In this document: positions 16,125 through 18,822 of the stretch, in pieces
How positions within the stretch are numbered: the first letter of the stretch is position 1
Layout: every line of letters begins with the position of its first letter
Sequence record: NC_014467.1
DNA length: 64,000 bases
From: Escherichia phage RB16
Direction: 5' to 3' (one strand)
Position numbers and translations under genes: made by a program
The notes under the pieces: model-generated
What the model saw: only the letters and a program-made list of their open reading frames with translations
Told to the model about the DNA's origin: nothing
Database searches by the model: none

Positions 16125-16346
16125 CTATTCGTAAACTTCGTTTTCAGTACCGTCTAACGTGATTTTCCAGTCACAGAATACATCATTAAACGAACGTGAT
16201 CTAGGAATATCAACACCAGATGTTCCCTTTCTTACATTCGTATACACAACAACGGTATCGCTCATGTATCGGATTCGGATCGGGAACCATGTGTAATTAT
16301 TCGCAGTCACCCATATTCTATAATTCAACGGAGGGAATGGTTTCAT
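16125..16346 (-). CDS. hypothetical protein
   Basis: 73 aa ORF. Confidence 0.4.
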   Translation of the reverse strand: MKPFPPLNYRIWVTANNYTWFPIRIRYMSDTVVVYTNVRKGTSGVDIPRSRSFNDVFCDWKITLDGTENEVYE

Positions 16347-16834
16347 TCTTCACTCTTCATAATTTTACGTTTGCGTTTATGAGGACGCGTAGAACCCAGG
16401 ACTTTTGGCCCTTTGTTCGTGATCGCGCCAGTGGTAACACCAGAAGCAATATTTTCAACACTACCGCCTGAATCACCAGCGACCATTTCTTCATTCATGA
16501 TTTGACGCATTTCTGGCATGTTCATCATGATCATTTCGTGGTCTTCTTCCGTCAGGTTATAACGGTTGCGTAGCGAGTCGTACATGCTCGTAAGGTTCAT
16601 GAACCCAGACATATAGGGAACCGCATTTAAACGGCGCTTGATATGCCTTACAGAGCGATGGAACGGGGAATATGCTTCCTGTTCTTCCTTCGTCTTCGGG
16701 TTCTTCAATACTTCCCCTTGACCGTCGATGATTCCCAGCTTGTACGCCGTCCATTCGGTAAAGGGTTTTTTCAGTAGGCGAATCATTCGCACACTGTAGG
16801 TTAAATCCATGTTTTTAACTAATTGATCGCTCAT
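16343..16834 (-). CDS. hypothetical protein (basic C-terminus)
   Basis: 163 aa ORF; C-terminal RPHKRKRKIMK. Confidence 0.45.
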   Translation of the reverse strand: MSDQLVKNMDLTYSVRMIRLLKKPFTEWTAYKLGIIDGQGEVLKNPKTKEEQEAYSPFHRSVRHIKRRLNAVPYMSGFMNLTSMYDSLRNRYNLTEEDHEMIMMNMPEMRQIMNEEMVAGDSGGSVENIASGVTTGAITNKGPKVLGSTRPHKRKRKIMKSEE

Positions 16835-16839
16835 AGTCT

Positions 16840-17625
16840 TTACTCTATTGTGAAAGTGAAAAGGTTTTGCGCGGGTTTGGTTTCCGGTTCGGGGAATTCC
16901 ATGCAGACAATTTCACACAACGGCTTCACGCCTTTCCAGTCCTCCAGATAGTATCCGGTATCAATGCCGCAACCAGGTTGCATTTCAAGGCCAGTTTCAT
17001 CGAGAAACTTTTTACATTTTGATGACGTTGTTGATTCATCTTGCCTAAAATATCGTTCACCGGAGTAACGAAAATTCGCGGACATCTGCGGGAGAATGAA
17101 CGTACCCATACGGGCAATCTGTGAAGCACGTTCGATCACTTTGTATTCAAATTCCGCGCCCGTATACTTACCCTTAAAATCGGATGTCTTTATTTTCCCG
17201 AAAGGTGGATTGCTGATCGCCATATCAAACAGAGTATCAAACTCAGTCGTTAATGCGTCTGCATTAATCCAGGTCGCTTCCGGTACGATACGCTTACCCA
17301 ACTTATAGTATGTATGGTTTAACTCAACACAGACGATTTCACGCGGTTTGGCGTACATCATCATATGAAGCATTGCGAACGATAGCCCACCGATACCCGC
17401 ACACAGGTCAACAACGCTTCCACTGGTACACGCATCAATCGTGAAATCGCGAGCAAGTCCGATGGGGGTAAAGAACGCGCCCAGTTCAGAGTTATTCGTA
17501 AATGCACCTTCATGGAAGTTTTCGATAATGAATAATTTTTCGTCGTAGGTTAGCGCCTTGTCAGACTCCACCAGATCCATTATCTTGTTGTGTTGTTTGG
17601 TTTCCGCTTTCGTTAACTTCGCCAT
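16840..17625 (-). CDS. SAM-dependent methyltransferase, NPPF motif (putative DNA N6-adenine/N4-cytosine MTase)
   Basis: 261 aa; motif I VVDLCAGIGGLSFA and motif IV NPPFG typical of amino-methyltransferases. Confidence 0.6.
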   Translation of the reverse strand: MAKLTKAETKQHNKIMDLVESDKALTYDEKLFIIENFHEGAFTNNSELGAFFTPIGLARDFTIDACTSGSVVDLCAGIGGLSFAMLHMMMYAKPREIVCVELNHTYYKLGKRIVPEATWINADALTTEFDTLFDMAISNPPFGKIKTSDFKGKYTGAEFEYKVIERASQIARMGTFILPQMSANFRYSGERYFRQDESTTSSKCKKFLDETGLEMQPGCGIDTGYYLEDWKGVKPLCEIVCMEFPEPETKPAQNLFTFTIE

Positions 17626-17959
17626 TGACCTTTTCCGGTAATAAGAACAGAGGGGTAGATTCTACCACATCAAAGCCCCAGTCATCAACAATATTGCTTT
17701 CCCAGTCGCGGGTTTCCCACGGGCTGCAAATCCACTTATACACCCCAGCAGGATCTTCAACCTGTTCAGGCATACCCAGCATTTCCGCATTGATACCTTC
17801 GTCCAGATAGCCAGGATGAATATTAGGCCAGCGCATGATATCAACATAGCCTTTGTCATCAACCGATACTATCCATTCTGAACGATACGGACTATCAAAC
17901 TTCGGTTCTTCGTCGTCTGGATATGCTGCAACTAAAATATCGTGCAATAGATCACTCAT
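17561..17959 (-). CDS. hypothetical protein
   Basis: 132 aa ORF; 3' end overlaps the MTase ORF by about 65 nt, so one of the two boundaries may be wrong. Confidence 0.35.
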   Translation of the reverse strand: MSDLLHDILVAAYPDDEEPKFDSPYRSEWIVSVDDKGYVDIMRWPNIHPGYLDEGINAEMLGMPEQVEDPAGVYKWICSPWETRDWESNIVDDWGFDVVESTPLFLLPEKVNGEVNESGNQTTQQDNGSGGV

Positions 17960-18186
17960 TTCACTAAACCTTCTTTAACGCCCTCTTTCATGGCTTTCAG
18001 AACACCGATAAAAGCGTCTTTGCCACCGATAGCGCCGATAATAAGCATTAGGACACCAACACAACCCGCTAAACCGATTCTGAACAGGTTCCAGGCAAAC
18101 GGGATAGCCAGAAGCACCAACCACGGAAACGGAAAGCCCATAAGTGCGTTTAGAACCAGTAAGATAAAAGCGATTGCAAGTTTCAT
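17956..18186 (-). CDS. small membrane protein
   Basis: Start placed at MKLAIAFILLVLNAL (RBS AAGGAGGA); two TM segments. Confidence 0.45.
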   Translation of the reverse strand: MKLAIAFILLVLNALMGFPFPWLVLLAIPFAWNLFRIGLAGCVGVLMLIIGAIGGKDAFIGVLKAMKEGVKEGLVK

Positions 18187-18281
18187 GATGTCCTCCTTTG
18201 TTTGTTTAGAATAAGGTATCACCTTTCGCGAACGATTGCAATACCTACAAATACAAAAAAGCCCCGAAAGGGGCTTTTATT

Positions 18282-18536
18282 TTATGCTTTGTTGATAAGA
18301 TACCGGAGAACGTTTTTCGCTTGTTCCTCATTACAACCAACTTTGAAATCAGGGTCGATCGGAAGGAAGTTCCAGAGGAATTCAACACTACCTTCAACGT
18401 CAGCTTTAGCGCCTTTCAGCATTTCAACAAGTAAACCTCTGTTTACTACGCTGTTGACTACTGCATCGAAATAACCACTGCTGAAATTCAGTTCTGGGTT
18501 CAGAACTTCGTCGTATGGGTTGTTCAGTAAGTTCAT
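18282..18536 (-). CDS. hypothetical protein
   Basis: 84 aa ORF. Confidence 0.4.
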   Translation of the reverse strand: MNLLNNPYDEVLNPELNFSSGYFDAVVNSVVNRGLLVEMLKGAKADVEGSVEFLWNFLPIDPDFKVGCNEEQAKNVLRYLINKA

Positions 18537-18615
18537 TTGGTATCTCCTTTTAATCTTTTGTTGTCTACGGGAGTCATATTATCATACTGACTACCTGTGT
18601 CAACAACTTTTTAGA

Positions 18616-18822
18616 TTATCGGGTACTTTTTACAACCCATCGAGAGAATGCAGGAAATACACCTACAACAGCAACGGTAATCACCACCCATACAGCGATT
18701 TTACCCACAGTCAATAGAATCAGCGGAGAGAATACCCACCACCAGGAAGCAGTAGCCATAAGGCCAACTTGTGCGAGTTTTAAACCCAACAGGATCAGAA
18801 ATACAACGGATAAAATTTTCAC
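18616..18822 (-). CDS. small membrane protein (GTG start)
   Basis: 68 aa, highly hydrophobic; GGGGCCGTAGCCCC hairpin immediately upstream. Confidence 0.4.
   Translation of the reverse strand: MKILSVVFLILLGLKLAQVGLMATASWWWVFSPLILLTVGKIAVWVVITVAVVGVFPAFSRWVVKSTR

Follow-up and report, generated by a model that had tools for sequence, protein, structure and literature searches.

A putative N6-adenine DNA methyltransferase encoded between the primase and helicase genes of Escherichia phage RB16, and the candidate clamp-binding tails of its family

The window analysed here is a stretch of 64,000 nucleotides from Escherichia phage RB16 (NC_014467.1), and our subject is a methyltransferase gene which lies in it between the genes for the gp61 primase (15091-16116) and the gp41 helicase (18851-20287). 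This interval is occupied by a block of seven minus-strand open reading frames (ORFs), designated A to G (16125-18822), as a previous sequence-only reading of the window had described. ORF C (16840-17625, minus strand) specifies the methyltransferase, a protein of 261 amino acids. Each of the seven ORFs matches its own PHROG family (E values of 1e-29 to 1e-131), and the same seven genes are annotated in Escherichia phage Lw1, which argues that these are genuine genes and not ORFs arising by chance. The region of the block, taken as a 5.3-kb query, is 96.7% identical to Lw1 (a Pseudotevenvirus of the RB43 group) and approximately 87% identical, over its full length, to about 60 phages of Enterobacter, Cronobacter, Citrobacter and Klebsiella. 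Some 200 phages of the RB43-like, Slopekvirus and related groups that have been sequenced keep the block, and slightly varied versions of it occur in Roth23 (Slopekvirus) and in Pantoea phage Phynn. In other words, it is an ordinary block, conserved among known phages, whose genes had been annotated before.

The sequence-only reading had credited ORF C with a motif I and an NPPFG motif, and both were recovered in an alignment of 100 homologs. Motif I, the S-adenosylmethionine-binding motif, is DLCAGIGG (residues 73-80; 17386-17409, minus strand), in which D73, C75, A76, G77 and G79 are invariant; in the catalytic motif IV, SNPPFG (residues 138-143; 17197-17214, minus strand), all six residues are invariant. 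Ahead of these stands motif X, GAFFTP (residues 49-54; 17464-17481, minus strand), invariant at A50, F51, F52, T53 and P54 and nearly so at G49. The order X, I, IV, followed by a conserved C-terminal region (approximately residues 150-243), is the gamma-class arrangement. GAFFTP resembles the G-x-[FY]-[FY]-T-P motif of HsdM and other gamma-class DNA adenine methyltransferases, and its combination with NPPF is typical of the HsdM type. In RefSeq the Lw1 protein is given as 246 amino acids, beginning at an internal Met (Lw1 record 17348-18088). Since the N-terminal 15 residues (MAKLTKxxxKxH...) are conserved family-wide, the true start should be the upstream ATG, which results in a 65-nucleotide overlap with ORF D.

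Close homologs of the methyltransferase number more than 1000. A search of 1.84 billion cluster representatives returned 199 clusters at E <1e-30, nearly all of them aligned over residues 1-245; the named members derive from phages Phynn and POP12, Aeromonas T4-like phages and a Vibrio phage, and the others from bacterial genomes. By tblastn the gene was located in 285 phage records, including RB43-like phages, Slopekvirus, Krischvirus (RB49/Phi1), phages of Aeromonas, Dickeya, Sinorhizobium and Ochrobactrum, and a Yersinia jumbo phage. The bacterial copies examined lie in lambdoid prophages: the Pseudomonas copy adjoins ERF in the early-left operon, and the Agrobacterium copy is in an operon downstream of a Cro-like gene and near RusA. 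No restriction nuclease partner was found beside the gene in the window, where its neighbours are small ORFs, the primase and the helicase, or in the prophages examined, and because of this we regard the enzyme as an orphan.

This is a known but uncharacterised phage gene which has already been annotated as a putative (DNA) methyltransferase. The annotations of its homologs read 'hypothetical protein', 'DNA methyltransferase' or 'release factor glutamine methyltransferase', the last (prmC) being used in the Krischvirus records kaaroe, vB_EcoM_011D4, ECD7 and Ec_Makalu_002. The Slopekvirus/KP15-like phages carry the gene mostly as hypothetical (in Roth23 at 17001-17777 of the compared stretch), and phiEap-3 has it at 87% identity (KT321315.1, 16044-16817), again annotated hypothetical. 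In the study of an 'unknown DNA modification' in KP15 and KP27 only Dam and Dcm were listed, and other methyltransferases were stated not to have been found (PMC5219037); as phiEap-3, one of the phages compared there, carries the gene, it was apparently overlooked in the KP15-like analysis. The 'Dcm' gene of KP27 (71150-72061) was considered as a candidate for the same gene and rejected, being a different methyltransferase at a different locus. A 2006 comparison of T4-like genomes recorded RB49 ORF143 as a weak match to the 'methyltransferase small domain' (PMC1524935).

Among curated models the generic Pfam MTS is the only one at threshold (24.1 bits against 23). The window protein does not reach the thresholds of Pfam N6_Mtase, of Eco57I (15.4 bits; cut-off 25.3) or of the NCBIfam DNA methyltransferase models, nor does it pass TIGR02987 (14.6 bits; cut-off 353.5), and it is far below the cut-off of the Alw26I family model. 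Of the PADLOC profiles, which have no curated cut-off, mad2 (from the MADS defence system) matched at 1e-12 and those for Type II DNA methyltransferases at 4e-7; phrog_3820, 'DNA methyltransferase', is matched at 7e-131. The labels PrmC, RsmC, UbiE and Taw2 were rejected on scores far below the cut-offs, RsmC (PRK09489) reaching 12.7 bits of the 295 required. An enzyme of the PrmC/HemK type, methylating glutamine residues of proteins, could be argued from the resemblance of NPPF to the NPPY of HemK, from the labels in ECD7, kaaroe and Ec_Makalu_002, and from weak matches to TIGR03534 (PrmC) and to TIGR03533; these matches amount to 18.3 bits against a cut-off of 199.1 and 12.1 bits against 229.7, and such an activity is hardly credible. 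With the PrmC model at 18 bits where 199 are called for, the prmC label is very likely an over-annotation. The sequence-only reading had left it undecided whether the enzyme modifies DNA, RNA or protein; with the PrmC and RsmC models both far below cut-off, it does not classify confidently as a ribosomal RNA (rRNA) or protein methyltransferase.

An AlphaFold model of the methyltransferase built on the 100-sequence alignment has a predicted local distance difference test (pLDDT) value of 91.8. Its longest structural alignments (approximately 200-213 residues) are to the DNA adenine methyltransferases lmo1582, type I HsdM, MmeI, DrdV and PacII, and Foldseek also matches M.BseCI, CamA, M.TaqI and HsdM. 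The fold scores are alike for enzymes of DNA (M.BseCI 17.6, HsdM 16.2, TaqI 16.2) and of RNA (METTL5 18.2, PH1948 17.5, Erm 16.3), and a search of the PDB sequences returned PH1948 alone, at an E value of 0.096. The modelled fold indicates an N6-adenine methyltransferase and does not on its own decide between DNA and RNA. It would suit an enzyme like METTL5/PH1948 or Erm/KsgA, which would methylate N6 of adenine in the ribosomal, transfer or messenger RNA of host or phage and thereby tune translation or escape RNA-targeting defences. We consider an RNA substrate improbable: the better-scoring profiles are all those of DNA methyltransferases, the RNA-methyltransferase models of NCBIfam stay far short of their cut-offs, and GAFFTP with the N-terminal helical region aligns to HsdM-type enzymes over approximately 210 residues as compared with approximately 172 for METTL5. 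DNA is also favoured because the clamp-binding type of peptide described below makes sense only for a protein whose work on DNA is done at the replication fork or in its wake.

A DNA role is further supported by Dickeya phage JA11, whose 389-amino acid homolog (JA11_233) is fused to a C-terminal, degenerate beta-class DNA-methyltransferase-like domain of approximately 140 residues, which retains a motif I region and has lost DPPY; two genes downstream lies a gene annotated 'putative DNA adenine methylase'. The Ochrobactrum phage homolog, annotated 'DNA methyltransferase, NPPF', adds to this support. Our prediction that the window protein is a DNA adenine methyltransferase is a rather confident one.

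The C-termini of the family show a recurrent organization. The conserved core ends in ...CE(I/V)V.C.F and is followed by an Ala/Pro/Glu-rich linker of 13-163 residues and then by a short terminal motif. Of 120 close homologs, 37 show the pattern Q[LMIFV]x[LMI][FWL] near the C-terminus, in most cases with 0-4 residues after it, and the column consensus of these 37 tails is Q-L-[D/S]-L-F. The beta-clamp-binding consensus reportedly given by Dalrymple et al. in 2001 is QL[SD]LF. Within 138 diverse full-length representatives the motif occurs in the last 14 residues of 22, whereas permuting the last 40 residues of each protein (500 trials) yielded 0.28 on average and never more than 3; only two of the proteins have it anywhere in the 235-residue core. 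Ten of the 22 carriers end exactly on the motif. Endings seen include QLGLF, QLALF and QLTLF, and near variants (QAGLFEEAA, xDLFAEAA, QLALGL) are seen in many further members. These patterns make it likely that the methyltransferase family carries beta-clamp-binding motifs. In the open-access literature that we searched there was no report of a clamp-binding motif in a methyltransferase of bacteria or phages, nor did we find the mechanism proposed below described there for a prokaryotic or viral methyltransferase; the clamp-tail pattern of this family is a new point. A subset of the bacterial and prophage homologs (nine sequences) possesses, after an LDLF-type motif, a second conserved C-terminal extension, which is basic (...TRRQRLDRKAxVERKARMAL) and might bind DNA or protein as an additional module.

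The window protein is without Q-L-x-L-F and ends AQNLFTFTIE (C-terminal end: PEPETKPAQNLFTFTIE). Two elements follow its core. The linker PEPETKPAQ (residues 245-253; 16867-16893, minus strand) is acidic and proline-rich, varies among relatives and has an AlphaFold pLDDT of approximately 60; the tail NLFTFTIE (residues 254-261; 16843-16866, minus strand) is the proposed gp45-binding peptide. Among the 15 closest homologs the F-x-I-E ending is kept in all, and [LN]FTF[TRV]IE in 12, and the linker differs by up to 20 residues and also in sequence. Conservation of the ending alongside such variation of the linker argues that the tail is a selected short linear motif.

In T4, gp43, gp33 and gp55 bind the gp45 clamp through hydrophobic-acidic C-terminal peptides which follow variable linkers and are interchangeable (PMC2988020), and the gp45-interaction motif has been given as LDFLF (PMC6212786); T4 gp43 ends in SLDFLFG. 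The RB16 window includes the gene for the gp45 sliding clamp, the proposed docking partner (26959-27624, minus strand; Pfam PF02916 and PF09116 in homologs), and that for the gp43 DNA polymerase, whose C-terminal tail SLNTLFGDDW (21869-21898, minus strand) serves for comparison as the phage's own clamp-binding epitope; gp33 and gp55 end in QTLDDFM and PTLEMFL, respectively. In the RB49-like phage Phi1 an acidic linker of 40 residues leads to the methyltransferase (ORF143) ending ...GTLSDLFDI, and gp43 of the same phage ends in ...ASLTDLFDI. The corresponding pairs are SDLFTFTIE and SLNDLFGDW in Slopekvirus Roth23, and ENFTFRIE and SLSDLFDF in Phynn. A metagenomic T4-like contig (SRR29026064) encodes a homolog with the tail ITLETFL immediately downstream of gp33 (tail IIRLFA) and near gp32 and a DNA ligase, a placement which suggests that the methyltransferase gene moves within the replication and late-transcription clusters of T4-like genomes. 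A regular-expression scan of the window ORFs for C-termini of the clamp type picked out, among real genes, gp43, gp33, gp55 and the methyltransferase; as its pattern was derived in part from the methyltransferase tail, the scan is circular and is set aside as evidence.

Based upon these data we propose that an orphan gamma-class N6-adenine DNA methyltransferase is expressed from the replication-gene cluster, and that a short, disordered, acidic and proline-rich linker would join its catalytic core to the NLFTFTIE peptide. The docking site of the peptide would be the replisome's sliding clamp, most probably that of the phage, gp45. Two points suggest gp45 as the partner: a clamp is encoded by the phage itself, and the [DEN]-[LN]-F core seen in the polymerase tails is retained in the methyltransferase tail. 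The enzyme could then travel with the clamps left on new DNA and methylate it during synthesis, so that methylation would precede cutting by host restriction enzymes and nascent phage DNA would be protected. The DNA substrate, the gp45 partner of the window tail and the anti-restriction benefit are each something that we infer, and the full mechanism for the window protein, replication-coupled, clamp-tethered and anti-restriction, is in our judgement only slightly better than an even proposition. For the family as a whole there is about an even chance that the tail is modular and has been exchanged in evolution to suit the replisome: temperate phages would use QL[DS]LF to reach the beta clamp of the host, and T4-like phages would use tails like those of the polymerase to reach gp45.

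Several observations weigh against this proposal. The window tail shares only an N-x-LF or LF core with the tails of its own gp43, gp33 and gp55, and, unlike that of Phi1, is no copy of them. A tail is lacking from about one quarter to one half of the family members, including those of Aeromonas T4-like phages, phiM12 and fHe-Yen9-04, from which it follows that tethering is not required for function. A fusion of gp45 to the 18 C-terminal residues of the methyltransferase, with (G4S)6 between them, was modelled in AlphaFold from 42 gp45 sequences, six of them paired fusions. Here gp45 was confidently predicted, the linker had pLDDT values of 33-42 and the last eight residues of approximately 65; in the model of the methyltransferase alone the same eight residues have approximately 60, the comparison being one of pLDDT alone. 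As to the substrate, the C-terminal domain is 50-55% identical between T4-like phages and Pseudomonas prophages and is small for a target-recognition domain. Being both small and unusually conserved, it leaves room for a non-canonical or low-specificity target, and suggests one shared, perhaps short or relaxed, specificity. Finally, no methylome, biochemical or genetic study of the family was found in the literature searched.

The first three of these observations are also what would be expected if the protein were a DNA adenine methyltransferase whose FTFxIE tail, in RB43-like phages, did not bind a clamp and was instead a remnant, a fold-back stabiliser or a ligand of some other partner; the prophage QLxLF tails would then be the only true clamp-binding motifs. 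The tail is no copy of the polymerase, gp33 or gp55 endings, the fusion gave no clear gain in confidence, and many family members work without any tail. To be set against this are the strict retention of F-x-I-E in 15 homologs with divergent linkers, as expected of a selected short linear motif, the position of the tail, which is that of the QL[DS]LF and DLFDI tails of relatives, and the retained [DEN]-[LN]-F core, as in the polymerase tails of the same phages. A tail of this non-binding sort is a minority possibility, to be given something like one part in four of our belief.

The tail might, on the other hand, serve mainly to occupy or titrate the clamp, in host takeover or replication control, with methylation being secondary. 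MuC of phage Mu offers a parallel, since it uses the beta clamp by way of a clamp-binding motif, and its overexpression disturbs the clamp-dependent control of replication initiation (bioRxiv 10.1101/2025.01.04.631326). The catalytic motifs of the methyltransferase are invariant in 100 of 100 aligned homologs, which implies that enzymatic activity is under selection, and tail-less members are common; titration as the principal role is very improbable.

If the clamp-tethered methyltransferase proposed here does operate as outlined, it would explain how the DNA of a rapidly replicating phage is fully methylated in time to escape restriction. Orphan phage methyltransferases are a main escape route from restriction-modification systems, and a clamp tether would be a concrete mechanism by which one of them could keep pace with a replisome copying a 170-kb genome hundreds of times in minutes. 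Methyltransferases would then join the clamp 'tool-belt' of bacteria and phages, and the apparent swap between beta-clamp and gp45 tails would constitute a natural experiment on the retargeting of enzymes by short linear motifs. There are practical aspects as well: phages of Klebsiella, Enterobacter and Cronobacter which are candidates for therapy carry the gene, and public records mis-annotate it as PrmC or truncate its product.

The remaining six ORFs of the block are lineage-specific early genes, two of which (E and G) specify predicted small inner-membrane proteins. T4 carries 61.1, 61.2, sp, 61.4 and dmd at the same position, much as the sequence-only reading had stated; a BLASTP comparison of all the block ORFs with T4 61.1, 61.2, sp, 61.4, dmd, imm and dam gave a single match, that of 61.1 with ORF B. 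No informative match to ORFs A, D or F was found in Pfam, NCBIfam or PADLOC, and PADLOC returned nothing for any of the six.

ORF A (16125-16346, minus strand) encodes a soluble 73-amino acid protein (phrog_9639) with homologs at the same position in Roth23 (57% identity) and Phynn (40%). The gp61.1-like product of ORF B (16343-16834, minus strand; 163 amino acids, basic with an isoelectric point (pI) of 9.5, phrog_2086) is the best-conserved protein of the block, being 78-79% identical to its Roth23 and Phynn homologs; its residues 106-144 are 54% identical to T4 gp61.1 (4e-12). A phmmer search of the PDB sequences revealed that residues 112-150 (16385-16501, minus strand) resemble residues 62-100 of the T4 major capsid protein gp23 (E 0.0045), with the common pattern GD.G...NIA.G.T.GA.T..GP.V.G. 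This part of gp23 includes the prohead-protease cleavage site and the N-terminus of the mature protein. The gp23-like segment is probably the reason why the ORF B product is mis-annotated as 'major capsid protein' in several phage records; it could be a mimic of the gp23 segment.

ORF D (17561-17959, minus strand; phrog_4953) encodes a very acidic protein of 132 amino acids (pI 4.1), for which neither a family match nor a PDB match was found. The 3' end of the gene overlaps the methyltransferase start by 65 nucleotides, the annotated overlap being 65 nucleotides in Roth23 and 38 in Phynn. We considered whether its product might be a conserved partner of the methyltransferase, such as a DNA-mimic anti-restriction protein, and dropped the idea. 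The pairing is limited to the RB43/Slopekvirus/Phynn lineage; in Phi1, in JA11 and in the prophages the methyltransferase occurs without ORF D. ORF F (18282-18536, minus strand; phrog_7209) specifies an acidic protein of 84 amino acids, 74% identical to its Roth23 homolog. It is preceded by a sigma-70-like promoter (18576-18603, minus strand) recognized by consensus match only (TTGACA-16 nucleotides-TAATAT, with an upstream TG as in extended -10 elements; 10 of 12 positions matching). Directly after its stop lies a GC-rich hairpin of 9 bp with T tracts on both strands (18257-18278), resembling a bidirectional terminator. From these signals ORF F appears to be a self-contained transcription unit with its own putative promoter and terminator.

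ORF E (17956-18186, minus strand; phrog_6843) encodes 76 amino acids from the ATG at 18186, or 88 if the GTG at 18222 is used. The ATG is most likely the start: it is preceded by an AAGGAGG ribosome-binding site, the PHROG match begins at residue 13, and Lw1 annotates 76 amino acids. ORF G (18616-18822, minus strand; phrog_6414) specifies a Trp-rich protein of 68 amino acids with a pI of 12, which scores 17 bits against TIGR04438, the small Trp-rich protein family, and so falls below the cut-off of 36. Two membrane spans are predicted for each of these products, their maxima in 19-residue Kyte-Doolittle windows being 2.3 (E) and 2.5 (G), while ORFs A, B, C, D and F have maxima of ≤1.6 and no predicted span. 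The sequence-only reading had thus described the ORF block, the methyltransferase motifs and the T4 position correctly and had overcounted the small hydrophobic proteins, of which the block contains two rather than three. Its third is probably a 61-amino acid ORF with two predicted membrane spans which lies outside the block (14365-14550), between a dda-proximal ORF (14081-14368) and gp56; the matching interval of Lw1 carries no annotation. By BLASTP this ORF aligns to T4 Imm with an E value of 0.97, and ORFs E and G gave nothing at E <10 against T4 Sp or Imm. Superinfection exclusion or lysis inhibition, for which the sequence-only reading had named the small membrane proteins as candidates, is for E and G a conceivable role that gained no support here.

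The counterpart region of Lw1 is a T4-like replication cluster which runs rIIA/B, topoisomerase, dexA, dda, gp56, gp61, the block, gp41, gp40 and uvsX, and continues with gp43, regA, gp62/44/45, rpbA, gp32, gp59, gp33, dsbA, rnh and gp55. Neither gene 42 nor a glucosyltransferase gene is annotated in the region examined, and on that ground the cytosine of the phage is presumably unmodified. Between gp56 and gp61 Lw1 has an extra ORF of 105 amino acids, Lw1_gp027, which the window lacks; Lw1 leaves 8% of the query uncovered, in part because of this difference. As called in the window, the gp56-like ORF (14550-15146) and gp61 overlap by 56 nucleotides.

A comparison of the window methyltransferase with known systems reveals both its affinities and its peculiarities. 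HsdM (M.EcoKI), M.TaqI, M.BseCI and CamA are larger, at 380-560 amino acids as against 261. Where gamma-class enzymes rely upon a specificity subunit or a large target-recognition domain, the window protein has a compact conserved C-terminal region of approximately 100 residues; it further differs from them in having no restriction partner, in falling below the Pfam N6_Mtase and Eco57I thresholds, and in its tail of clamp-binding type. T4 Dam (alpha-class, GATC) is likewise an orphan phage adenine methyltransferase whose gene adjoins gene 61, in T4 on the gp56 side. It belongs to an unrelated family with another motif order and DPPY, has no BLASTP similarity to the window protein and ends in EVYIFN, without a clamp-type tail. 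METTL5 and PH1948, which are concerned with N6-methyladenosine of 18S rRNA, resemble the window protein in NPPF(G), in small size and as the top-ranking fold match; the identity is approximately 17-21% over an alignment of approximately 172 residues that leaves part of the window protein outside, and they have no clamp tail and a different genomic context.

The likeness to the gp45 ligands of T4, namely gp43, gp33, gp55 and the LDFLF loop of DNA ligase, consists in a short hydrophobic-acidic peptide, which in the methyltransferase is at the extreme C-terminus behind a variable linker. The tail of the Phi1 enzyme is almost identical to that of Phi1 gp43, and [LN]FTFxIE of the RB43 lineage is a variant of its own among tails of the gp45-ligand type, and a putative gp45 ligand. 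The prophage methyltransferases carry a C-terminal QL[SD]LF in the manner of Pol II, Pol IV, Hda, the transposases of insertion sequences (IS) and MuC of phage Mu, the cargo being different; IS transposases are an instance of mobile-element proteins which borrow the host beta clamp (PMC4549789).

The closest parallel to the proposed logic is eukaryotic: through a PIP-box, a short clamp-binding peptide, PCNA brings the DNA methyltransferase DNMT1 to newly replicated DNA (PMC9690074). DNMT1 is a C5-cytosine enzyme that uses PCNA and a peptide in its N-terminal region, whereas the phage family would be made up of N6-adenine enzymes that use beta or gp45 and a peptide at the extreme C-terminus, and the two have independent origins. 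The clamp interaction has been demonstrated for DNMT1, and that of the phage methyltransferase is a prediction; should the latter prove true, the family would be the prokaryotic and viral counterpart of DNMT1-PCNA coupling.

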